A DNA stretch of 64,000 nt from Thermofilaceae archaeon (GCA_038861545.1 JAWCCZ010000001.1:288001-352000); one strand, 5' to 3'. Shown: positions 2,902 to 58,792, counted from the first letter of the stretch. The notes: generated from the sequence alone by a model not told the origin. A program made the numbers and translations.

Positions 2902-5042
2902 ACATGAGAAGAGGTACAAGTTGAGCCTATACTTCTTGTTTCCCTAGTATCTAGATAGACTTTTACGTCAATGGCGACTACTCCTTTCTCGTAAACGAAT
3001 AGAGGGTTTACATCTATTTCAGAGATTTCCTCGAAGGACTCCATTAAACCAGCAACTCCTAGTATAGATCTCTTAACTGCTTCTATGTCTAAGGGTTTTC
3101 CTCGATAACCTTTTAGTAAAGAACCAACTTTTGTTTCCGCGATCATCTCTTCTAAATCTTCTTCTGTTAAAGGTGCTATTTTAATGGAAATATCATTGAT
3201 TAATTCTACCATGAGACCCCCCCATCCGAAAGCAATCATAGGTCCGAAGACAGGATCGCGACGACAACCCAAAAATACTTCCACCCCTTTCGGCATCATT
3301 TTCCTGACGGAAACTCCGTTAATCCTAATATTCGGAAAAGCAGCTTTTACGTTATTAAGTATTTTTGTATATGCTTCTTCCACATCTTTATCTGAGTCTA
3401 AGTTCAGGATGATTCCACCAACTTCAGTTTTATGAGCTATATCGGGGGTCTCTACCGCTAGTGCTACAGGGTATCCAAGCTCGCGTGCGGCAGCAACAGC
3501 TTCCTCTTTACATGTTGCTAACCGCGCTTTAATAGTAGCTACCCCATAAGCTTCTGCTACTTTAAATGCCTCTATAGGGGTAAGCATTGTGTACCCCCTA
3601 ATTAATGCCTCCCTAATTATGTCCTTCACAACTTCGCTTTCACCAATTATTTGTAGCTGCTTTCCTGGTTTTCTTCTGCCCTTGTAATAAGCGTATACTG
3701 CAGCTAGAGAGTGAGCCGCCTCTTCCGGTGATTCATAGCTCGGTATACCTGCTGAAATGAGCTTCCTTAAAATAACCCGGCTTTCTTCTCCACCCGTTAC
3801 TGAGACCACAAGTGGTTTTTTTAATCCAACTTCAGATACAGCTTTTAAAATAGCTTCTCCAATTTCGTTGGGCGTAGGGATTGCACCCTGACCTGCCCAT
3901 AGGAGTACTGCATCAATGTATTCGCTCTTTAGTAACGTTACCAAAGCTCCCTTAAGGTTACTAGCTGTCATCATACCGGTAAGATCAACTGGGTTTCGAA
4001 CGCTGCCGAACGGAGGCATAAATTTACTGAGCTCTTCGGCAAGATCAGGTGTAATATTAGCTAGCTTGATCCCCCATTCGCTTAGTGTATCCGAAGCCAG
4101 CACTCCTGCTCCGCCTCCATGAGTTAAAATAACTGTATTACTCCCTTTGGGTTCAGGGGATAAAGCAAGTGCTAAGGCCCAATTAAAGAGCTCCCTGAAA
4201 TTTAACGGTCTTAGGGCACGTGCCTGCCTGAACGCTGCCTCATATGCTTCATCAGAACCGGCAAGCGAGCCAGTGTGTGATTTTATAGCTTCAGCTGCAT
4301 CAGGACTTCTACCAGCTTTAAGAATCAACACTGGTTTTTCTGGTGTAGTCTTAGCTAGTTCGTCCAGGAATCTTCTTCCTTCTCCCTTACTGAGACCTTC
4401 AATATACATGGCAATCACTCTCGTGCCGGGATCATTTCTAAAGAAGTTCAAGAAATCACTTTCACCGATATCTGCTCGATTACCTATACTCACAAGGCTG
4501 GAAAAGCCTATACCTCTTTCACGAGTCCACCATATGAGTGAGGTGATCAATGCACCGCTTTGTGAGAGGAAAGCAATTGAACCTGGGAGAGGCGCCGCGT
4601 CAATAAAACTATAGTTTACCTTAGCTAAAATATTCCAAACTCCTACTATGTTTGGCCCTAATAATCTAAAACCATACCTTCGCGCTATCTCCACCAGTTT
4701 TACCTCTAGATCAGTTTCCCCCACCTCCTTAAAACCGGAAGAAATTACCGCTACCCCCCTTACACTTTTCTTCCCACATTCCTCGAGTATGAAGGGAACC
4801 GATTTCGCTGGTACAGCTACAACCGCGAGGTCAACTTGCTCGGGCACGTCGAGCACACTAGTATAACATTTCAAATTCAAGATTTCAGTTGCATTTGGGT
4901 TGACTGGGAAAACCCTACTTACAGGAAAACCTGATTGAATAATGTTTCGCAGTATTCTATACCCAATTTTTATAGGGTCACGCGAGGCTCCTATCACAGC
5001 TATGGTTCTCGGGCGTAGGAAAACTTCTGTGCCGGTTGTCAC
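2898..5042 (-). CDS. Acetate/acyl-CoA ligase (ADP-forming), alpha-beta fusion
   Basis: CoA-binding IAVIGAS, GPN, SQSG, catalytic SHTGSLAG, NPVD; ATP-grasp beta part with AHKTEVGG, DPVFGP and DVNP. Confidence 0.92.
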   Translation of the reverse strand: MTTGTEVFLRPRTIAVIGASRDPIKIGYRILRNIIQSGFPVSRVFPVNPNATEILNLKCYTSVLDVPEQVDLAVVAVPAKSVPFILEECGKKSVRGVAVISSGFKEVGETDLEVKLVEIARRYGFRLLGPNIVGVWNILAKVNYSFIDAAPLPGSIAFLSQSGALITSLIWWTRERGIGFSSLVSIGNRADIGESDFLNFFRNDPGTRVIAMYIEGLSKGEGRRFLDELAKTTPEKPVLILKAGRSPDAAEAIKSHTGSLAGSDEAYEAAFRQARALRPLNFRELFNWALALALSPEPKGSNTVILTHGGGAGVLASDTLSEWGIKLANITPDLAEELSKFMPPFGSVRNPVDLTGMMTASNLKGALVTLLKSEYIDAVLLWAGQGAIPTPNEIGEAILKAVSEVGLKKPLVVSVTGGEESRVILRKLISAGIPSYESPEEAAHSLAAVYAYYKGRRKPGKQLQIIGESEVVKDIIREALIRGYTMLTPIEAFKVAEAYGVATIKARLATCKEEAVAAARELGYPVALAVETPDIAHKTEVGGIILNLDSDKDVEEAYTKILNNVKAAFPNIRINGVSVRKMMPKGVEVFLGCRRDPVFGPMIAFGWGGLMVELINDISIKIAPLTEEDLEEMIAETKVGSLLKGYRGKPLDIEAVKRSILGVAGLMESFEEISEIDVNPLFVYEKGVVAIDVKVYLDTRETRSIGSTCTSSHV

Positions 5043-9344: not shown

Positions 9345-11441
9345 TTAAAGGTTAAGACCCGAAACTAAAGTAAAAACTAGATAGCTGGCTATTAGTGATG
9401 ATAAAAGTGACCACGCTGTAACAGAAACAGTGTATCTAAGGCTCCCAGTTTCCTTGTATACAGTCTCAATAGTAGCTATACAAGGCATATATGTGGTGTA
9501 AAGTGTGAGTAAGGACAGAGCTTGAGCACTAGTTAACTGAAGAGACTTAAGTGCATTTATAGGGTCAGTCTTCGCGATTACCGATATAGAAAGTATTGTA
9601 GCTTCTTTGGCTATAAGTCCAGCTACGAGTGAGAAGCCGATGAGCGTTGCTTTCTCTCCTGTAATCCCAATGAAAGTTAATAGGGGTGATAGAGTATCGC
9701 CGACTGCTACCGCAAAACCGCTTAACTCAGATGTTAATGTCCATATAGCTAAGCTTAACCCGAAAATCACGATCCCAGCTCTTTTCAAGTAGTGTTCCGT
9801 ATAATCCCAAGCTATCCACCATAAAACTCTGAAAGAGGGGAAGTGAATTGGAGGTAATTCTATTAAAAGCTCCGGCAGGTCTCTTATACCGTAAAATCTC
9901 CTAGTAATCCTTGAAGTAAAGGCGAAGAGCATAAAAGCACTTGTATAGGAGATCAGCAACGCGGTAGCAGATACAAAAGGAGATGGAAAATAAGCGGAAA
10001 TAAATGCTACGATGATGGCTAATCGTGCTTGGCAGGGTATGAACGGAACCGAAAACATGAGCTGTTTCCTTTCCACCTCATCGGGTGTCGCCCGAGATGC
10101 CATCACAGCTGGGACATTGCATCCTAAACTGATTAAGAGAGGGTACACTGCTCGACCAGACAACCCTAGCCGCTGGAAGAAGCGGTGAAGCGAAGCTGCT
10201 ATGTATGGTCCTACACCACCATCCTCAAGCAGGGATAGCATGAGCAAGGCTGTGAAAATTAAAGGTAAAAAAGTGAGAACTAATCCCACTCCTTGAAGTA
10301 TTCCATCAGCAATTATACTTTTTACGAGAATAGGCAGAGAACTCCCTCTTACTAACATAGATATGTTATTAAAAACGCTTGAAATGAGACCAGCTAAGGT
10401 AAGACCCTCCAATAATTCGGCTACATCAGCCGCACCAATTGCTTTTAGGATAAAGGTTAGAGGAAAGCCAGTGTTTAGTGTGAAAATTGTTAAGTAGAGA
10501 GATAAGAGTATAAGTAATGAAACTGCTGCTCCAACTCGAGATAATAATATTTTTTCAAAGGCCCCAATATCTTCACGAAGTCGTTTTCTAACCATTGCGA
10601 TTTTACAAAGTCTATCTACAAAACAGAACCTGTACTGGATTTCTAGCTCATCAACCTCCCTACCGGTAGATTGTATAATTAAATTCCTTAACTCTTTAGC
10701 TTTCTGTATTATCTTCTCTTCTCCAACAGATTGTATTAGTGTTGAGATGTGTTCGTCGCCTTCAAGCAATTTCAACGCTACCCACCTAAGTGGAGCTTTA
10801 AAGGGTAAGTTTACGCTAGCCAATCTTTTTTCTAGTTCTTTGATATGGTTCTCGAGATAACCGTATTCTATTTTAAGAAAATTCCCAGTATTCTCCTTTA
10901 AAATTTGAAGAAGCTTGGTGATTAATTCTTCAATCCCCTCTCCTGTCACTGATGAAACAGGAACAACAGGTACACCAAGCTCGCTTTCAAGTTTACTAAC
11001 ATTTACATGAACTCCGTATTTATGGGCAATATCCCACTTGGTTAATGCTATGAGAGCTCGCCCTGTTAGCTCGAGAGCGTGGACTGCTAAGTACAGCGTA
11101 CGTTCAAGAGCCAGCGAGTCTACAAGAATTAGTAGAGCATCCCACTGACCTGTTATCAGGAAATCTCTTGCAACTTTTTCTTCTGCGCTGGTTCCTGCTA
11201 ACGAATAAATTCCTGGTAGATCAATTAAAACTATTTCTTTATCACCTACTCGAATTAGACCCTCTTTTCGCTCAACCGTAGTCCCTGGCCAGTTAGCAAT
11301 GTGAGCAATTTCCTTAGTTAAAACAGTAAATAGTGTTGATTTACCAACATTAGGGTTCCCAACGACAGCCACTTTAAAGGGGCGTGAACTCACCCCTCCA
11401 GAACATGTCGGTTCATTCGCTGTATTGAACTTCTTTTTCAT
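9345..11441 (-). CDS. feoB: Ferrous iron transporter FeoB
   Basis: GNPNVGKS, NWPGTTVE, DLPGIYSL; membrane part with GCNVPA, PCQAR and PCIAT. The true start may be GTG at 11393 (GGAGG upstream). Confidence 0.93.
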   Translation of the reverse strand: MKKKFNTANEPTCSGGVSSRPFKVAVVGNPNVGKSTLFTVLTKEIAHIANWPGTTVERKEGLIRVGDKEIVLIDLPGIYSLAGTSAEEKVARDFLITGQWDALLILVDSLALERTLYLAVHALELTGRALIALTKWDIAHKYGVHVNVSKLESELGVPVVPVSSVTGEGIEELITKLLQILKENTGNFLKIEYGYLENHIKELEKRLASVNLPFKAPLRWVALKLLEGDEHISTLIQSVGEEKIIQKAKELRNLIIQSTGREVDELEIQYRFCFVDRLCKIAMVRKRLREDIGAFEKILLSRVGAAVSLLILLSLYLTIFTLNTGFPLTFILKAIGAADVAELLEGLTLAGLISSVFNNISMLVRGSSLPILVKSIIADGILQGVGLVLTFLPLIFTALLMLSLLEDGGVGPYIAASLHRFFQRLGLSGRAVYPLLISLGCNVPAVMASRATPDEVERKQLMFSVPFIPCQARLAIIVAFISAYFPSPFVSATALLISYTSAFMLFAFTSRITRRFYGIRDLPELLIELPPIHFPSFRVLWWIAWDYTEHYLKRAGIVIFGLSLAIWTLTSELSGFAVAVGDTLSPLLTFIGITGEKATLIGFSLVAGLIAKEATILSISVIAKTDPINALKSLQLTSAQALSLLTLYTTYMPCIATIETVYKETGSLRYTVSVTAWSLLSSLIASYLVFTLVSGLNL

Positions 11442-11673
11442 TTTCTTCCCTTGGCTTAACTAATACTTTAACAGCTAAACCACGACCTAGTGCAGCTGTA
11501 ACTCCTCTAACCTTTACAACTACGGGTCCAGAGAAACCATTGATAAGCACTTCGACTTCAGATCCAGGGGAGAGCCCCATTTCAAGCAGTCTTTTCTTAG
11601 CGCCTAATCCACCAGTAACCTCTACCACAAGTACTTTACTCCCAGCAGGGACATCAGCTAAGGATCGAATCAT
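11413..11673 (-). CDS. feoA: Ferrous iron transport protein FeoA
   Basis: RLLEMGLSPG..GPVVV..ALGRGLA; lies upstream of feoB. Confidence 0.9.
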   Translation of the reverse strand: MIRSLADVPAGSKVLVVEVTGGLGAKKRLLEMGLSPGSEVEVLINGFSGPVVVKVRGVTAALGRGLAVKVLVKPREENEKEVQYSE

Positions 11674-12287
11674 TTTACCACTTTTTTCACATAAATCAGC
11701 CTTGCGATGTTTAGGGGGATACGAAGTACCCGAGTACTCACATTCACAATTACATCGCTTCCATCAAATCCAGAAACTTCGGTTAGGTCTCCCGCTTTCA
11801 AGGCTAACTTACGTCCCCAGTCAACAAGCTCACTGATTTCACCTATTCTCACGATAGTATAGGTACCTTTTCCAGCGTTGCTTAATGGTACAGCGGGTTC
11901 TGTGACGCGTGTAGGCACTGGATTACCGTGGGGGCAATGAGATGGTTTCCCCAAGTAATCGTCCAGAAGCTCAGCGAAATGGTCAACATGTTCAAGCTCG
12001 TGAGCTAAATTATGTGCTTCCCATAAGTCAACCTTCAGAACATCAGTGAGAAATCTCTCAACAACTCTATGATTGTATATGACTCTTACGGCCTTTTCGA
12101 TGCCTTTCTGAGTCAGTAAATATATAGGACCTCTTTTAATTATATAACCCTCTTGTTCAAGTTTTGATAGTATGCGGGTAGCCGTTGAAGCTTTTACACC
12201 TAAATTCTCGGCGACAAAGCTAAGCCTAGCCTCTATTCCAGCCTCGTTCAACCTGTATACAACAGCTAAGTAATCCTCGCTTCTCAT
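11670..12287 (-). CDS. DtxR/MntR-family metal-dependent transcriptional regulator
   Basis: EDYL, HTH, HRVVERFL, AHELEH, CPHGNP and a FeoA-like C-terminal domain. Confidence 0.9.
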   Translation of the reverse strand: MRSEDYLAVVYRLNEAGIEARLSFVAENLGVKASTATRILSKLEQEGYIIKRGPIYLLTQKGIEKAVRVIYNHRVVERFLTDVLKVDLWEAHNLAHELEHVDHFAELLDDYLGKPSHCPHGNPVPTRVTEPAVPLSNAGKGTYTIVRIGEISELVDWGRKLALKAGDLTEVSGFDGSDVIVNVSTRVLRIPLNIARLIYVKKVVK

Positions 12288-12302
12288 CTAAACCTCAAAA
12301 CA

Positions 12303-12330
12303 AAAAAATTAGGCATATACATAAATTTTT
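12303..12330. promoter_or_regulatory. Imperfect palindrome overlapping the TATA box of the dtxR-feoAB operon (candidate DtxR operator)
   Basis: AAAAAATTAGG-CATATA-CATAAATTTTT; arms match 9/11 and contain a TTAGG half-site like DtxR boxes. Confidence 0.5.
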
Positions 12331-12345
12331 TGATTAGTCTAAAAT

Positions 12346-13173
12346 TCACTTATTAAAAGCATACACGAAGGCTTGGCCGAATGTTTGCTCCGGGAAATAG
12401 ATAACCGTGTGGTAACCTCGTCGCTCAAGCTCTTCGGCAATTTCGCTTGGCTTAACGATCGGTAAATGCGCTTCTATAACAATTCTCCGCACTTTTTCCG
12501 GTTCTATGCTCCGAGACCCACTGATAAGCTCGAGCTCCGCCCCCTCAACATCTATTTTCAGAAGGTCAACATAACTTAGTGATATGAGAAGCGAATCGAG
12601 TGGAAATGCCCGCACGTAAATTCGGTGTAAAACCCCACCCATTAACTCAGCATAATCCCTACGTGTACTTGCATTAATCGGGCTATGAGGTTGGAAAAGA
12701 ACAAGCTCTTCCCAATTCACCCAAGCACATCCTTTAAGCAACCTAACATTGCTAAGATTGTTCTCAGCCACATTAAGCTTCAGAAGCTTGAAATTCTCTG
12801 GAAATGCTTCAACCGCTATTACACGCCCCATAGGCCCAACAAGTTTAGCGCTCCTTAACGTATAAAGCCCAATGAAAGCTCCTAGATCCACAACGCTCCA
12901 GCTAGCTTTAGGCCTAAAATCGGCTATAATTTCATAGTCTCGATAGTAAAACACATGGAGTATATTCCTTAGTACAGTTTCTAGGAGGCCGAGCGTAGAA
13001 TAAATGGCTAGCCCATTTTTAAAGTGCAGCCTTACAAGTAGGCGCGGGGCTAATTTTCCTATGTAGCTTAACGTGGCTAGCATCACTAAATTATCCGAAA
13101 GACAATTCATTTTCGTAGCACTGATAAGCTCGCTGAACATAACAATACGATGTGCGGTGTAGTTTTTAACCAA
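12346..13173 (-). CDS. FkbM-family SAM-dependent methyltransferase
   Basis: VVDLGAFIG, VIAVEA, LLKIDVEGAE. Start uncertain. Confidence 0.85.
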   Translation of the reverse strand: MVKNYTAHRIVMFSELISATKMNCLSDNLVMLATLSYIGKLAPRLLVRLHFKNGLAIYSTLGLLETVLRNILHVFYYRDYEIIADFRPKASWSVVDLGAFIGLYTLRSAKLVGPMGRVIAVEAFPENFKLLKLNVAENNLSNVRLLKGCAWVNWEELVLFQPHSPINASTRRDYAELMGGVLHRIYVRAFPLDSLLISLSYVDLLKIDVEGAELELISGSRSIEPEKVRRIVIEAHLPIVKPSEIAEELERRGYHTVIYFPEQTFGQAFVYAFNK

Positions 13174-53478: not shown

Positions 53479-53548
53479 AGCTTTTGAATAAGGTACACAC
53501 GCTGTGTGAATACTTTATATATTGTGGATAAGAGCTGTAGGAGGACAT

Positions 53549-54970
53549 ATGGTGAAATTTGAAATCTTAACACGGGATGAAATTGATCTAATTCATGAAT
53601 CAACCGTGAATGTTTTAGAGCGGGTTGGAGTCAAGGTTTTCGAGCCCGGTGCGCTAAAGCTGCTGGGGGAAGCTGGCGCAGAAGTTAACCAGAAGGAGAT
53701 GAAGGCTAAGATTCCAGAAGAGTTGCTTAAGGAATGCTTGAAGAAAGCGCCTAGGAGGTTTTCACTGTACAGTAGGAAAAGTGGCTATAAACTGGATCTA
53801 GAGGATGGGCGTACGTATTTTTCGACTCAGGGAACAGCGGTTTTCATTATCGATGCAATAACTGGAGAAAGGCGCCCTTCTACCTTGAAGGACGTGGAAA
53901 AATTTTACAAACTCGCTGATGCTTTACCAAACGTACATCACGCTACGCTAGTCGTACACCCAACTGATATACCGGAGCACGTTGCTCACGCGTACGCTCT
54001 CAGCATTGCTTTCAGAAATACAACGAAGACCGTAGACGCGTACGTAAGCGATAAACGAACAGCACTGGATACAGTGAAAATAGCTTCAGTAGTTTCTGGC
54101 GACAAAGAGAAACTGAGCAGGGAGCCTCTACTGCTGATGTTCTACAACCCGGTAAGCCCACTTCAGCATTCTAAAGGGTTGCTGGAAGCGCTGCAGGTTT
54201 TCGCTCAGTACCGTCAGCCCGTGATCATTGCACCCGAATGCCTATCGGGGGCCACCGCTCCGGTTACACTGGCTGGGCTATTAGTTCAGCAGAACGCCGA
54301 GGTCTTAAGCGGTATCGTCATCGCTGAGCTTTATCGTCCAGGAGCACCAGTACTCTACGGAACTGTTTCGACGGTTATGGACATGAGAACGGGCAATATC
54401 GCTCTTGGTGCTATTGAAGGTGGGCTGATTAACACGGCTACAGCTCAGCTAGCGAGGTTTTACGGTATCCCCTGCAGGGGCTACGGGGGTACTACTGAAG
54501 CTAAAGCGGCGAATATTCAAGCTGGTTTTGAAAAAGCTTTTACGCTCCTTATGGCTGCGATGTCGGGCGTAAACTTCATTTACGACGCTGTAGGCTCTCT
54601 AGATTCAACGCTGGCAGCCAGCTACGAGCAAGCGGTCATCGACGACGAGCTATGCGGTATCGTATCCAGAGCTTTGAACGGCATCAGCGTCGATGAGGAG
54701 ACACTAGCTGTTGAAGTAATCGAGAAAGTTGGTTCCGAGGGAAATTACCTGCGCGAATTGCATACCGTGCAGAATCTGCGTAAAGAGCATTACATCCCCG
54801 CTTTACTGTTCAGGCAGAAATGGGGGGCTTGGGCTGCTTCAAAGGACATCTTAAATCAAGCTAGAGAGAAAGCCGAGAGAATTCTCCGGGAGCATCAACC
54901 CGAATCCCTTGACCGGGACGTTGAAGCGGAGCTTATGTCAACTGTGAAAGAGATCGTAAAAACCGCGTAG
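53549..54970 (+). CDS. Trimethylamine methyltransferase (MttB) superfamily protein, non-pyrrolysine
   Basis: IHES...LE.VG, RRPST..D, SPLQH, GATAPVTLAG, NAEVL.G, PGAPV.YG, DMRTG, EAK...QAG.E. No in-frame amber codon. AGGAGG precedes ATG 53549. Confidence 0.9.
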   Translation: MVKFEILTRDEIDLIHESTVNVLERVGVKVFEPGALKLLGEAGAEVNQKEMKAKIPEELLKECLKKAPRRFSLYSRKSGYKLDLEDGRTYFSTQGTAVFIIDAITGERRPSTLKDVEKFYKLADALPNVHHATLVVHPTDIPEHVAHAYALSIAFRNTTKTVDAYVSDKRTALDTVKIASVVSGDKEKLSREPLLLMFYNPVSPLQHSKGLLEALQVFAQYRQPVIIAPECLSGATAPVTLAGLLVQQNAEVLSGIVIAELYRPGAPVLYGTVSTVMDMRTGNIALGAIEGGLINTATAQLARFYGIPCRGYGGTTEAKAANIQAGFEKAFTLLMAAMSGVNFIYDAVGSLDSTLAASYEQAVIDDELCGIVSRALNGISVDEETLAVEVIEKVGSEGNYLRELHTVQNLRKEHYIPALLFRQKWGAWAASKDILNQAREKAERILREHQPESLDRDVEAELMSTVKEIVKTA

Positions 54971-55122
54971 GGTGGTTTTCATAACCGGTACAGGCTTACT
55001 CAGAGTTTATACCTCTGAAAGTTTATTTATATAATAGCTTACTCGGATAAAAATTTTTAATTAAAAGTCTCGGTTCAGTGAAAAAAGTATATAAGCGGGG
55101 AGGGGTATTACCCCTGTGACAG

Positions 55123-56760
55123 GTGGGTATAAAAAACTCGGATGAGGACTCGCATACCGTAGCTAGAAGCGGCGTTTTCCTGAGAGAAGCTACAGGCCTT
55201 GTGAGAGAGGCTAACTGGGCTGATATCCTGATCTTCGCCTCTCTGAACATCAGTTGGGGGTTAAGCGCGTGGTGGTACTTCCTATGGGGTCCCTACTTTG
55301 CTCCCGGAGGCAACCTTCATCTAGGCATTTTGCTTGTGCTTGTCCCGATGCTTTTCGGAGCGCTCGCTTGGGCTTTCCTAGTAACGATAGCTCCAAGAAG
55401 CGGAGGAGAGTACGTATTCGTCAGCAGGATCTTGCATCCGCTTTTAGGTTTCCTCTCCAGCTTTGGGTGGATTATAGCCAACTTCGTGTGGATTGCCGTG
55501 CTTTCGGCGTACGTAGCTGACCCAGCTCTTTCCATCACTTTTTCACTAGTCGGCTGGAGCGGGGCAGCGGAGTTTGTTTCCTCGCAGGTTGGAATATTTG
55601 TTGTCGGCGCGGCGGTCATAGCAGTATCCGCGATCGTAGCTATACTCGGCTTCAAAGCGTTCCGCGTTTTTCAAGCGGTTTGCTTTACGCTGGGTTTAAC
55701 TATGTTTGCCCTAGTTTGGTTCTTTCTGCTAACTGCAACGCGAGAGAACTTTATAGTGGCTTGGAACAGCATAAGCTCTCTATACGGCTCTGCCGACTAC
55801 CACACTATTGTAGCTGAGTCCCTGAACTACATAAGAAGCACGTACGGGATCGAGACGGAATACTCATGGGACCTGGCTAAAGCTATGCCCCTTATGCCGG
55901 TTGCAGCATGGGGCCTTATCTACCCCTATCTCGCCGCATACATTGCAGGCGAGACTCGGGATGTCCAGAAAAGCATGACCCTAGGCTTACCCGGAGGCCT
56001 AGTGCTCTGCGCGCTATCGTGGTGGATAACTGGCGCACTCCTGGAAAGGGTCGTGGGTTACGAGTTTCTGCTTGCAACGGCCTATGCCTACGGGGATGGC
56101 TTAGAGCTCTACACGCTGCCGTTTCCGCCCTCCTTCCATACTTTCGCTGGGATCCTAGCCCCTACCTGGGCTCGATGGCTTATAGGAATCGGTTTCGTAG
56201 CATGGACGTTCTATTACGCGCTCTACTCGATCATGCCGATGAGCAGGATTTTCCTCGTATGGGCTTTCGATAGGCTTGCACCCGAATTCCTTGGCGATGT
56301 CAGCGATCGTTTTCATGCACCAGTAAAGTCCATAATGCTTGTTTCAATACTGGGTTTCGCCGCCCTAGCCTTCTACGCCTGGAATCCTACGTACCTGGCT
56401 AGTTTCACAGCTATGATACCTCAAATCTCCACTACGTTCATGTTTACCGCAATTTCAGCTATAGTGGTGCCTTTCAGAGCTAGGATGAAACCTGTTTACG
56501 AAGGCGCCCCCGTTTCAAAATATAAAATAGGCCGTTTACCCTTTATCACGGTGTGCGGAGTAATTTACGCTGCGCTACTCGCTGCTCTGCTTTACTACTA
56601 CTTCACGATAGAGGGTCTAGGCGCGCTTCACATACCATCGATAATGGCGCTTCTAACCGCTTACCTTGTCGGAATAATATACTTTTACGCCGTAAAGTGG
56701 TATAGGAGAAGACAGGGCATCGATATAGATGTAGCATTTAGGGAGCTCCCGCCCGAGTAA
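55123..56760 (+). CDS. APC-superfamily amino acid/amine permease
   Basis: FLREATGLVRE, PRSGGEYVFVSR, YIAGE, SR....WAFDRL.P, C-terminal FRELPPE. Confidence 0.9.
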   Translation: MGIKNSDEDSHTVARSGVFLREATGLVREANWADILIFASLNISWGLSAWWYFLWGPYFAPGGNLHLGILLVLVPMLFGALAWAFLVTIAPRSGGEYVFVSRILHPLLGFLSSFGWIIANFVWIAVLSAYVADPALSITFSLVGWSGAAEFVSSQVGIFVVGAAVIAVSAIVAILGFKAFRVFQAVCFTLGLTMFALVWFFLLTATRENFIVAWNSISSLYGSADYHTIVAESLNYIRSTYGIETEYSWDLAKAMPLMPVAAWGLIYPYLAAYIAGETRDVQKSMTLGLPGGLVLCALSWWITGALLERVVGYEFLLATAYAYGDGLELYTLPFPPSFHTFAGILAPTWARWLIGIGFVAWTFYYALYSIMPMSRIFLVWAFDRLAPEFLGDVSDRFHAPVKSIMLVSILGFAALAFYAWNPTYLASFTAMIPQISTTFMFTAISAIVVPFRARMKPVYEGAPVSKYKIGRLPFITVCGVIYAALLAALLYYYFTIEGLGALHIPSIMALLTAYLVGIIYFYAVKWYRRRQGIDIDVAFRELPPE

Positions 56761-56774
56761 GCCGAGTAAGGTGG

Positions 56775-57728
56775 GTTAAAACGCGGATACGAATTTTTTA
56801 CGCTTCAGATATTCACGGAAGCGAGGTATGCTTTAGGAAATTCATAAACGCGGCCAAAGCGTATAAAGTCGATGTTTTAATCTTAGGTGGTGACATAACA
56901 GGTAAAGTCTTAGTCCCTATAATTGAAAAAGGCGGCAAATACTTTGCCGAGCTCGGAGGAAAGAAGTGGGAAGCGGCAAGCCAGGCCGAGCTGAATACGC
57001 TGATTAGGTCTATCAGAGACAGTGGTTTTTATACTGTAGTTTTAACTGAGGATGAATTCTTGAAGATTAAAGATAATCCCCAGCTAGTGGACAACCTCTT
57101 TAACGAAATAATGGTTAAAACTGTATCCAGCTGGATTAAATTAGCCGATGAGCGGCTCGATGGAAGCAACATAGAATGCTATTTGATGCCAGGTAACGAC
57201 GACAGAGTAACAATAGACGACGCCTTTAAATGTTCCGCCAGGGTAGTAAATCCTGATTGTAAGGTATTGGAAATTAAGGGAGGGTTGAAGCTGGTAAGCC
57301 TTGGCTTATCGAATCCAACGCCATGGCGGACTTCGAGAGAGTACCCCGAGGAAGTGATTTACGAAAAGCTTAACAGGCTTATAAGGTCCGCCGAGGACCC
57401 TGATATTACTCTGTTAAACGTTCATGTTCCACCCTACGGAACACCCATAGATTTAGCCCCTCTACTCGACCACACGCTACGGCCCGTAACTAGAGGCGGG
57501 CAGGCAGAGATGGTGCACGTCGGCAGCATCTCGGTAAGAAAAATCATCGAAGAATTCCAGCCGCTTACTAGCTTACATGGACATATCCACGAATCGCGAG
57601 GGGTTATAAGAATTGGTAAAACCCAATGCTTTAATCCTGGCAGCGACTATAGCTCGGGTGCCCTAAGAGGGGTTTTACTAGAAGTTGAGCGTGGGAAAGT
57701 AAAAAATTATATGTTCACGTATGGGTGA
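56775..57728 (+). CDS. Icc-related calcineurin-like metallophosphoesterase (no canonical start codon)
   Basis: The frame is open upstream of the ORF-track start at 57060: RIFYASDIHGSE, GGDITGK, then PGNDD, HVPP, HGHIHE and NPGS. No ATG/GTG/TTG occurs in frame before motif I. Confidence 0.85.
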   Translation, partial: VKTRIRIFYASDIHGSEVCFRKFINAAKAYKVDVLILGGDITGKVLVPIIEKGGKYFAELGGKKWEAASQAELNTLIRSIRDSGFYTVVLTEDEFLKIKDNPQLVDNLFNEIMVKTVSSWIKLADERLDGSNIECYLMPGNDDRVTIDDAFKCSARVVNPDCKVLEIKGGLKLVSLGLSNPTPWRTSREYPEEVIYEKLNRLIRSAEDPDITLLNVHVPPYGTPIDLAPLLDHTLRPVTRGGQAEMVHVGSISVRKIIEEFQPLTSLHGHIHESRGVIRIGKTQCFNPGSDYSSGALRGVLLEVERGKVKNYMFTYG

Positions 57729-58792
57729 CGAGGTTGGATAAAGTAAAGCTCTACGAAGGGAGGGATGGAACACCTTATGAAGTAGCTCTTCCGCTTACGT
57801 CGACGCTAGATTTATCCATAGCTGTCAGCGACCTGGGCTTACCCGGCTACATAGACTTAGCCAATCCAGCTGTGCGAAGGGCTATTGCAGCACTATGGGC
57901 TGCGCAACGAGCTCCGGTTTTAGACCTTAAAATCGGTGATAAACAGCCGAAGAAGGCGCTTAGTCCTCTCCTTTTTGGAGGTGTAGCTGTAAAGCTGCAC
58001 TGCCCTTCGGCTAACAAGCCTAACCACCCGCTGAACAGGTGCGTAAAAGACATAGATTTCGCTGTACCTAAGTCTCAAGGAGCATTATTCGCAAAGCTTT
58101 TAACCAGCTTAAGCGGAGCTTTCGGATCCTACTACACGTTTTTTATAACGCCGAGCGATAAAATGTTTAACGCATTGAGAGGCGGAAGAAGGTATCGAGT
58201 TAGATCCATCTACGAAACCCTCGAAAACGGAATAGGCATTAACATAATCGACGTTTTCTGCGATGAATTACCCTTCAGGCATACGATTAAGCTTAGAAAA
58301 GACTTATTCGAACTATCTAGGGCTAACGTATACACGATTGGTCTCGAAAGCCTTCTACTTTCTAAATGTCAGTTCATCTTCGGCTTACCGCACGAAAGGA
58401 TAACTGAGCTAGAGGTAGCCGGTCAAAGCTTCAGGTTGCTGCCCTACAAGCACTTAAGGGGGTTAGTAGCCGTAGGCATGGAACTGAAGGATGTAAAAGA
58501 CGTGGCGGCACTACTGCTAGACCACGAGATAGGGGAAGGGCCTGATCAGATAAACCTAAAAGCGGTAAAGCGGGTCTTGGAGAAAGATAAGGGTTTCGCA
58601 CTCACCGTAGAGTTAAACCTCAGGAACCTAGTAGATAGGATAGATATTCTAGTCCATGAAGGGCTCAGTAAATCTGAAGTCGGTAAAATCACCGATACGG
58701 CTAACGAACTATTGAAAACGCTACCCACAATCGATAAGCAATGGGATAAACCTTGGTGGAACCTTTATGTTGAGACACCTAAGGTAACGTAG
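57725..58792 (+). CDS. Uncharacterised Pol-beta-superfamily nucleotidyltransferase-like protein
   Basis: LFGGVAV...KDIDF, IDVF, LLLSK.Q, KD..D...LL.DH; overlaps the phosphoesterase stop codon (GTGA). Confidence 0.68.
   Translation: MTRLDKVKLYEGRDGTPYEVALPLTSTLDLSIAVSDLGLPGYIDLANPAVRRAIAALWAAQRAPVLDLKIGDKQPKKALSPLLFGGVAVKLHCPSANKPNHPLNRCVKDIDFAVPKSQGALFAKLLTSLSGAFGSYYTFFITPSDKMFNALRGGRRYRVRSIYETLENGIGINIIDVFCDELPFRHTIKLRKDLFELSRANVYTIGLESLLLSKCQFIFGLPHERITELEVAGQSFRLLPYKHLRGLVAVGMELKDVKDVAALLLDHEIGEGPDQINLKAVKRVLEKDKGFALTVELNLRNLVDRIDILVHEGLSKSEVGKITDTANELLKTLPTIDKQWDKPWWNLYVETPKVT

Follow-up and report, generated by a model that had tools for sequence, protein, structure and literature searches.

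The stretch of DNA analysed here, referred to as the window, comprises 64,000 nucleotides from a Thermofilaceae archaeon (GCA_038861545.1, JAWCCZ010000001.1:288001-352000). At positions 55,123 to 58,792 it carries three co-oriented open reading frames encoding an APC-superfamily permease, a metallophosphoesterase (MPE) and a nucleotidyltransferase of the Pol-beta fold (NT), and a 152-bp spacer separates this trio from an upstream MttB gene. An initial annotation of the window, made from the sequence alone, had described three closely packed genes in one orientation and had stated that no function is characterised for such a trio. The open frames are present where it had placed them, and a literature search covering the three gene types together turned up no published account of the module. 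The trio is real, but the annotation overlooked both the module that exists at the level of the gene families and the lack of a canonical start codon in the MPE gene. The three genes are as follows:

55123..56760, + strand: APC-superfamily permease, GTG 55123 to TAA 56760, 545 amino acids; a distinct family with a conserved cytoplasmic tail
56787..57728, + strand: metallophosphoesterase with a cap insertion; the frame is open from 56742 and either begins at a non-canonical ATA or has a misread start region
57725..58792, + strand: Pol-beta-fold nucleotidyltransferase, GTG 57725 to TAG 58792, with an alternative start at TTG 57734

The closest relatives of the window genes come from metagenome-assembled genomes (MAGs) labelled Thermofilaceae (82% identity for NT), and the names of the module proteins in the source records are generic.

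The trio is one copy of a conserved archaeal module, which also occurs in fused form in some bacteria. Eighty loci were gathered by similarity to NT alone and searched with the three window proteins, and their open frames were clustered; the counts rest on the 46 loci in which NT is flanked by 5 kb or more on each side. Of these, 42 contain the permease and 38 the MPE, and 37 contain the two together. A membrane protein of 300 residues with two helices and no Pfam family (MEM) was present in 36, and a second, shorter NT paralog (NT2; hhalign probability of 97.8% to the NT family) in 30, while neither was found with these queries in the window genome, which is 92% complete. The order of the genes, with the sign giving the strand, is MttB+ PERM+ MPE+ NT+ in Thermofilaceae and NT+ MEM- PERM- MPE+ NT2+ in Bathyarchaeia, and Nitrososphaeria and other lineages show further orders. 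Among MPE-centred loci from genomes without the long NT (n=20), about 17 have an adjacent permease and 12 a short NT. Counted by hand, 73 of the 100 top MPE hits have a scored permease at most 5 kb away, as against a chance expectation of about 2%; scoring was limited to three permeases per genome, which makes this count a minimum. Of the short NT hits, about two thirds are located within about 3.5 kb of an MPE. The neighbourhoods of three short NT relatives were uninformative, except for one that has an MPE ortholog one gene away.

Further arrangements were seen among the loci. The five-gene version of Bathyarchaeia is represented by L002 (7110-8036 on the - strand and 10866-11795 on the + strand), and a matching layout occurs in about 40 Bathyarchaeia loci. 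Locus L107 (G381 contig 7, 36000-55000) packs three complete permease-MPE-NT modules into 19 kb, a formamidase gene accompanying one of the three, and other genomes carry up to five MPE copies. In L060, L063 and L064, from Marsarchaeota/Thermoprotei MAGs, the long NT is followed by genes for an AAA ATPase (MoxR-like), a VWA protein (CoxE-like) and an NTPase (DUF84), and the permease and MPE are not there. In L001, the module permease is split into three frames (3338-4978), and a class III aminotransferase gene (11017-12733) is interrupted by the gene for a Cas12f1/TnpB-like protein.

Each of the three profiles was also run on 401 sampled genomes of the phylum (Thermoproteota). The permease family was found in 88 genomes; full-length MPE was found in 81, all of which also have the permease family, and the NT superfamily in 83, 80 of them together with MPE. 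Only four genomes are discordant for MPE and NT. The counts per taxonomic family are near-identical for the three profiles: 6 of 12 genomes in f1 (for all three), 5/25 in f22, 2/17 in f21, 13/15 in f29 and 13-14 of 24 in f26. No P-value is given, because related genomes are not independent samples. Nevertheless, the repeated joint presence and absence within patchy families is hard to explain without a joint function. The carriers include Bathyarchaeia, ammonia-oxidiser-like genomes and the cultured Caldivirga and Infirmifilum. The genome G118 has one MPE, one NT and at least three unlinked permeases, and in genomes resembling those of soil ammonia oxidisers NT and MPE were each found paired with a permease, in separate places.

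A search for longer MPE relatives revealed natural fusions of the module proteins. At least 17 protein clusters of about 580 amino acids (P0242 and P0244-P0258 among them) consist of an N-terminal short NT and a C-terminal MPE, with hidden Markov model (HMM) scores of 160-325 bits for the NT part and 317-445 bits for the MPE part. The gene of the fusion P0242 has a 4-bp overlap with a permease gene and is itself followed by glutamine-synthetase-like and AllG genes, and the fusion P0248 lies 3.7 kb from a permease. Locus L140 (6001-7746) is listed for the fusion family. One NT-MPE cluster comes from a MAG labelled Planctomycetota; the NT/MPE pair therefore also exists outside archaea. Two further proteins, P0241 and P0259 (860 and 874 amino acids), are MPE-permease fusions; since both are singletons, they may be errors of the records. 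The initial annotation had suggested a gene-neighbourhood survey as a check, and had named a lack of conservation in other genomes as grounds for refuting its proposal. No such refutation resulted: the trio is conserved elsewhere, with shuffled gene orders, matching presence and absence, and fusions.

NT gave no match in Pfam (with E-values up to 1) or in NCBIfam, and the only match of its profile in a sequence search of the PDB was a chance one to a designed helical protein. The AF2 model of NT, built from a 35-sequence alignment, has a mean predicted local distance difference test score (pLDDT) of 93.2 and shows the core fold of the Pol-beta superfamily (alpha-beta-alpha-beta-alpha-beta). 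In an exhaustive structure search (VIA), the top eight matches were all of the nucleotidyltransferase (NTase) fold, with Z-scores of 7.3-10.5: a fungal NTase-like antigen (5uvd) scored 10.5, ANT(2'') 10.3, TglT/MenT3 10.0, MenT1 9.7, JHP933 8.9, MenT4 8.0 and LnuA 7.8. JHP933 and MenT3 were also the top Foldseek matches, with borderline E-values of about 1e-3. Among these matches, ANT(2''), TglT, MenT1, JHP933 and LnuA are Pol-beta NTases that move a nucleoside monophosphate (NMP) onto a hydroxyl. The likeness to CD-NTases (OAS2, cGLR, CdnB and cGAS; Z 4.5-5.0) is well under that to the ANT/MenT-type proteins, and the NT core aligns with Rel and small alarmone synthetases with Z 5.7-6.2. The residues invariant in 35 homologs are G85, G86, R105, D109, D111, D176, K214, Q216, K255, D256 and D259, and they include the motifs of Pol-beta NTases, namely F84-G85-G86, D109-I-D111-F and the third carboxylate D176. 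The catalytic signature that the initial annotation had read from the third protein (GG, DxD and a later acid) was thereby confirmed, and the predicted structure bears out the NTase fold, with the catalytic residues intact, on which that reading depended.

The NT profile search covered 1.84 billion proteins and returned about 60 close representatives and 805 in all, most of the others being 250-270 residues long. Among the short relatives, 14 of 24 match PF14907 (NTP_transf_5), all below the gathering score of 31.2 bits (28.6 bits at best), and the ESM Atlas neighbours of NT are likewise labelled PF14907. The window NT itself (P0003) gives no PF14907 match and the paralog NT2 scores 13.2 bits, short of the same cut-off. 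As most of the relatives are proteins of 250-270 residues with sub-threshold PF14907 matches, the sequence comparisons indicate that the window NT is a long form, with an added N-terminal hairpin domain, of an orphan NTase superfamily near PF14907. Our literature search found no function for PF14907. As to the start of the gene, the overlap of 4 bp (GTGA) with the MPE stop codon (57726-57728), which had been reported before, is present if NT starts at GTG 57725; gene callers prefer TTG 57734, 5 nucleotides past the MPE stop, and the database copy of NT accordingly has 352 amino acids.

We also compared NT with the AbiEii and MenT proteins. AbiEii proteins are characterised by four motifs, hGG, an Arg within the DhD motif, a Lys with hydrophobic flanks and +DxxD (PMC3985639). 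NT has the same order of motifs (G85 G86, R105-x3-D109-x-D111, L-S-K214-x-Q and K255-D256-x-x-D259, all invariant), and the Arg seven residues past the Lys (KLxAaxxR of AbiEii) is absent from it. Membership of NT in AbiEii was rejected despite this likeness of motifs: PF08843 gave no match, and hhalign against 12 archaeal AbiEii proteins gave probabilities of 0.6% with the NT alignment (A1) and 12% with that of the short relatives (A3). Other families of the phylum do have AbiEii proper, and none was found in sampled genomes of the module-carrying families f1, f7, f14, f26, f29 and f30. MenT toxins carry a Ser/Thr auto-phosphorylation site after hGG (PMC11375011); this site is absent from NT, where the residues after GG are [VAMG]-A in the 35 homologs. 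No antitoxin gene (AbiEi/COG5340 or MenA) was seen beside NT, whose neighbours are MPE and permease. PADLOC gave no match to NT, its sole match being a generic MPE segment, and a role in defence or as a toxin-antitoxin system was rejected on this account.

The MPE matches PF00149 with 30.5 bits (cut-off 21.5) and has the five metal-binding motifs of calcineurin-like metallophosphoesterases which, numbered from the ATA codon, are DxH (D8, H10), GD (G35, D36), GNDD (136-139), H213 and HGHIH (264-268). The intact metal motifs listed in the initial annotation (DIH, GD, GND, H and HIH) are thus all there, and DxH, GD, GN, H and GHxH are invariant across 46 homologs. Motif III is GNDD, in which an invariant D138 replaces the usual His, and motif II is GDxTGK, where a Lys occupies the position of the Arg; with these motifs the protein lacks the signature of PPP-type protein Ser/Thr phosphatases (GDxHG, GDxVDRG and GNHE). 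In the PDB, the sequence search with the MPE protein gave no match and that with its profile only aq_1956 (E = 1e-3), and NCBIfam holds nothing specific for the permease, MPE or NT. The AF2 model (pLDDT 95.3) is nearest to aq_1956 (2yvt, E = 1.7e-12) and TT1561 (1uf3), and the fold also matches Mre11, LpxH and others. In mutants of CthPnkp and lambda phosphatase, the motif III His together with the motif II Arg is required for the monoesterase and cyclic phosphodiesterase activities and is dispensable for the diesterase activity (PMC2190708). MJ0936 and YfcE, with Asn and Cys respectively at the position of this His, are diesterases only, and YfcE cleaves an aryl ester of thymidine 5'-monophosphate (PMC2190708). 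Because the motif III His is replaced by Asp, the analogy with these enzymes makes it more likely that the window MPE is a non-cyclic phosphodiesterase. This is the activity that is needed for stripping a nucleotidyl group from a hydroxyl.

The start of the MPE gene differs from the earlier description, in which a gap of about 15 bp followed the permease gene. The frame contains no ATG, GTG or TTG before TTG 57060, which lies past catalytic motifs I and II. The codon ATA 56787, 26 nucleotides past the permease stop, stands where five orthologs have GTG or ATG. The upstream GTG 56771 is out of frame (GTG GGT TAA), owing to one extra G in comparison with the closest relative (GGG instead of GG). 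The start region (56765-56790) would be explained either by near-cognate initiation or by a sequence or homopolymer error in the assembly. We also considered whether ribosomes starting at GTG 56771 might shift into the MPE frame in a programmed manner, but judged this unsupported, as the reading frame of that GTG stops after two codons and no slippery site is recognisable.

The window permease passes the Pfam cut-offs for PF00324 (54.8 bits) and PF13520 (48 bits) over residues 45-530, and its sole sequence match in the PDB is to CAT4, a cationic amino-acid transporter of plants (E = 2e-6). The Pfam search showed no known nucleotide-binding domain in it. The C-terminal tail ..G-[IL]-D-x4-[FY]-x-E-[IL]-P-P-[EA] is kept in 80 aligned family members, in linked and unlinked copies alike. 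The permeases of different classes are only 25-28% identical, yet the module permeases of Thermofilaceae and Bathyarchaeia are reciprocal best hits. On this ground we rejected the idea that the Thermofilaceae permease is a separate MttB-linked transporter recruited by chance. Prediction of a permease-MPE complex from paired 46-row alignments gave a score of 0.00, which is no answer and bears neither way on binding.

The variable genes embedded in the modules encode arginase-family hydrolases, arginine deiminase (ADI)- and amidinotransferase-family proteins, class III and class IV aminotransferases, an amidohydrolase with a xanthine-dehydrogenase-like subunit, formamidase and MttB methyltransferases. 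All of these are enzymes of organic-nitrogen catabolism; their substrates share neither a phosphate nor any other common handle, and yet NT and MPE are conserved across the modules. Since the embedded enzymes act on unrelated compounds, one NT and one MPE can stand against at least three permeases, and the conserved tail is found throughout the permease family, NT and MPE seem to be partners of this family as a whole and not enzymes devoted to a single substrate.

We tentatively propose, with somewhat less than even confidence, that NT and MPE are an opposing pair, one for nucleotidyl transfer and the other for diester hydrolysis, which gates the permease family and hence the uptake of organic nitrogen. 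NT would move NMP from a nucleoside triphosphate (NTP) onto a hydroxyl of a target common to all module permeases, which may be the permease itself or a permease-bound factor; the C-terminal ..EIPPE tail could serve as the docking site. MPE would cleave the resulting non-cyclic phosphodiester and erase the nucleotidyl group, and the pair would switch uptake by the permease on or off with the state of the cell. A narrower version is possible but more doubtful, namely that NT and MPE are a writer and an eraser dedicated to transporters, which reversibly nucleotidylate APC permeases, or a factor docked at ..EIPPE, and would thereby govern the uptake of organic nitrogen in Thermofilaceae, Bathyarchaeia, relatives of ammonia-oxidising archaea and, with the two enzymes fused, some bacteria. 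The initial annotation had left a choice between reversible nucleotidylation or signalling linked to import and the processing of an imported amine. The unrelated, unphosphorylated substrates, the shared NT and MPE and the fusions make us lean to the regulatory writer and eraser and favour amine processing less; the mechanism is one that we infer.

Several observations weigh against gating by nucleotidylation. The NTase structures nearest to NT act on small molecules or tRNA and not on proteins. Apart from positions in the motifs general to APC proteins, no Ser, Thr or Tyr is invariant across the permease family; the aromatic residue of the tail is Phe in the window permease and Tyr elsewhere, and no hydroxyl residue of the tail is invariant. 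The MPE copy of the window might be poorly expressed, since it lacks a canonical start codon. Finally, a covalent switch, a diffusible signal and a shared step of metabolism cannot be told apart by comparing genomes alone.

The last two of these options deserve closer consideration. If the pair were metabolic and not regulatory, NT would nucleotidylate the imported compound, for activation or trapping, and MPE would then hydrolyse the product or, in a variant, MPE would first strip a phosphoester group and NT would activate what remains. The small-molecule NTases ANT(2'') and LnuA among the best structural matches fit this scheme, as does the position of the modules inside catabolic gene clusters, and consecutive enzymes of one pathway can be fused too. 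However, the embedded enzymes act on unrelated unphosphorylated classes (guanidino compounds, amides, amines and quaternary amines), yet NT and MPE are 40-65% identical across modules; some genomes have a single NT and a single MPE for at least three unlinked permeases; and writing and then erasing on one small molecule would be a futile cycle. We consider such substrate processing unlikely. Slightly less probable again, in our estimation, is a nucleotide signal, with NT making a diffusible messenger, MPE degrading it and the permeases acting as effectors, comparable to the control of osmolyte and potassium uptake by c-di-AMP or to Rel/SpoT. Fusion of a synthase with a hydrolase is a typical trait of messenger systems, the presence of many permeases for a single NT and MPE suits a messenger, and the alignments of the NT core with alarmone synthetases and CD-NTases given above point the same way, but this likeness to messenger synthases is much weaker than that to ANT/MenT-type proteins. 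Cross-talk would be expected in genomes with three to five complete modules, MPE is without the His that is tied to the hydrolysis of cyclic nucleotides, and the permease shows no known nucleotide-binding domain to receive the signal.

The structures that resemble NT most include TglT/MenT3, MenT1, MenT4 and JHP933, its order of motifs is that of AbiEii, and the MPE domain of Pnkp heals RNA ends (PMC2190708). These points would suit RNA modification of the MenT/AbiEii kind, or a toxin-antitoxin or defence function, in which NT extends tRNA 3' ends, MPE heals RNA ends or counteracts NT, and the permease is linked only through the supply of amino acids. The missing PF08843 match, the low probabilities in the profile comparison with archaeal AbiEii proteins, the lack of AbiEii proper in the sampled genomes of six module-carrying families, the invariant GG-x-A in place of a Ser/Thr phospho-site, and the lack of a PADLOC match to NT and of an antitoxin-like neighbour all speak against it; moreover, the module lies on the chromosome and is present or absent together with the permease. 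We regard this function as very improbable. Least credible of all, to the point of being nearly dismissed, is that the genes have no functional link and lie side by side through synteny inherited by related genomes. Closely related Bathyarchaeia do contribute many of the 80 loci, and related genomes are not independent samples, but the trio is found together across classes in several orders and strand arrangements, its presence and absence match within patchy families, and gene fusions exist, one of them in the Planctomycetota-labelled MAG. Gating of the permease family by NT and MPE thus remains the reading that we prefer.

The region upstream of the permease gene contains three further features:

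53522..54970, + strand: MttB-family methyltransferase (non-pyrrolysine), PF06253, E = 1.2e-116, frame uninterrupted
55081..55094, + strand: promoter-like element, an A-rich run resembling the B recognition element (BRE) followed by TATATAA, found by direct reading of the sequence about 32 nucleotides before the permease start codon
55097..55114, no strand assigned: inverted repeat of G-runs and C-runs (GGGG..GGGG TATTA CCCC), past the TATA element and ahead of the permease start codon

MttB lies upstream in all Thermofilaceae copies of the module. The Thermofilaceae order given above is seen in L007, L008, L010 and L012, and L001 has the same genes with MttB on the opposite strand. MttB is also found within the modules of L104 and L105, from an unrelated lineage. 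It is probably the substrate-specific catabolic gene of the window's copy of the module, and because this neighbour is conserved the cargo of the window permease is probably a methylated amine. The window genome has a second non-pyrrolysine MttB homolog (contig 1, 467762-469132) and a single gene for a B12-binding (corrinoid) protein (contig 4, 100759-101097), which is unlinked to either MttB. The TATA element placed near 55082 by the initial annotation proved to be present, as part of the promoter-like element listed here, and a TATA-like element occurs at the equivalent position in five orthologous loci. G-runs followed by C-runs stand at the equivalent place in L007, L008, L010 and L011 despite diverged flanks; the inverted repeat could be an operator or a 5' hairpin. 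Downstream of NT, a frame of 143 amino acids gave no Pfam match.

About one fifth of the sampled Thermoproteota genomes carry the module, often in several copies, and it adjoins genes for arginine- or guanidine-type compounds, amides, amines and methylated amines. The uptake of organic nitrogen and its regulation are largely uncharted in these abundant archaea. A dedicated pair of enzymes that keeps so strictly to one permease family, to the point of fusion with it, suggests a mechanism of control or coupling without a described counterpart. If our proposal is correct, transporter-directed nucleotidylation would be a new regulatory system, and a post-translational control of a kind not yet described for secondary transporters. 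The module also provides a first functional context for the orphan NTase superfamily near PF14907 and for PF14582-like phosphoesterases. To our knowledge, crystal structures of the latter have been without a function for about 20 years.

The individual proteins can be compared with several known families. NT has some of its likest structures (Z 8-10) among AbiEii/MenT proteins (DUF1814, PF08843) and shares with them the order hGG, Rx3DxD, hydrophobic-flanked Lys and +DxxD, but it differs in the lack of an HMM or profile match, of an antitoxin gene and of a Ser/Thr phospho-site, in a spacer of 22 residues between GG and DxD as compared with about 15, and in its extra N-terminal domain. ANT(2'')-Ia and LnuA have in common with NT an NTase core followed by a helical C-terminal domain (Z 10.3 and 7.8) and move NMP onto a hydroxyl; they are only 13-15% identical to NT, which is about twice as long and whose context is not one of antibiotic resistance. 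The nearest Pfam family, PF14907 (NTP_transf_5), is likewise uncharacterised. For the MPE, the closest folds are those of aq_1956 (2yvt) and TT1561 (1uf3) (PF14582; Foldseek E-values of 1e-12 to 1e-10), which are themselves uncharacterised, and YfcE and MJ0936 share the replacement of the motif III His. The window MPE differs from aq_1956, TT1561, YfcE and MJ0936 in a cap insertion of about 90 residues and in the Asp at the His position.

As a pair, NT and MPE resemble the bifunctional Rel/SpoT and GGDEF-EAL enzymes, in which synthase-like and hydrolase domains are likewise fused or adjacent, although the structural likeness is weak (Z about 6) and the hydrolase belongs to a different family. 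The proposed logic is shared with GlnD/PII (GlnK)/AmtB and with GlnE/glutamine synthetase, where a Pol-beta-type NTase writes, a hydrolytic activity removes, and the uptake or assimilation of nitrogen is controlled. The writer and eraser activities of GlnD and GlnE are often in one polypeptide, as in the NT-MPE fusions. In contrast to these systems, where the eraser is an HD domain or another NTase domain, the proposed eraser of the module is a metallophosphoesterase, the module has no PII, and its partner is an APC permease and not Amt; the homology of NT to GlnD and GlnE is limited to the fold, and its target is only proposed. Still, the parts of the module come from known superfamilies, and the logic proposed for it has known analogues.

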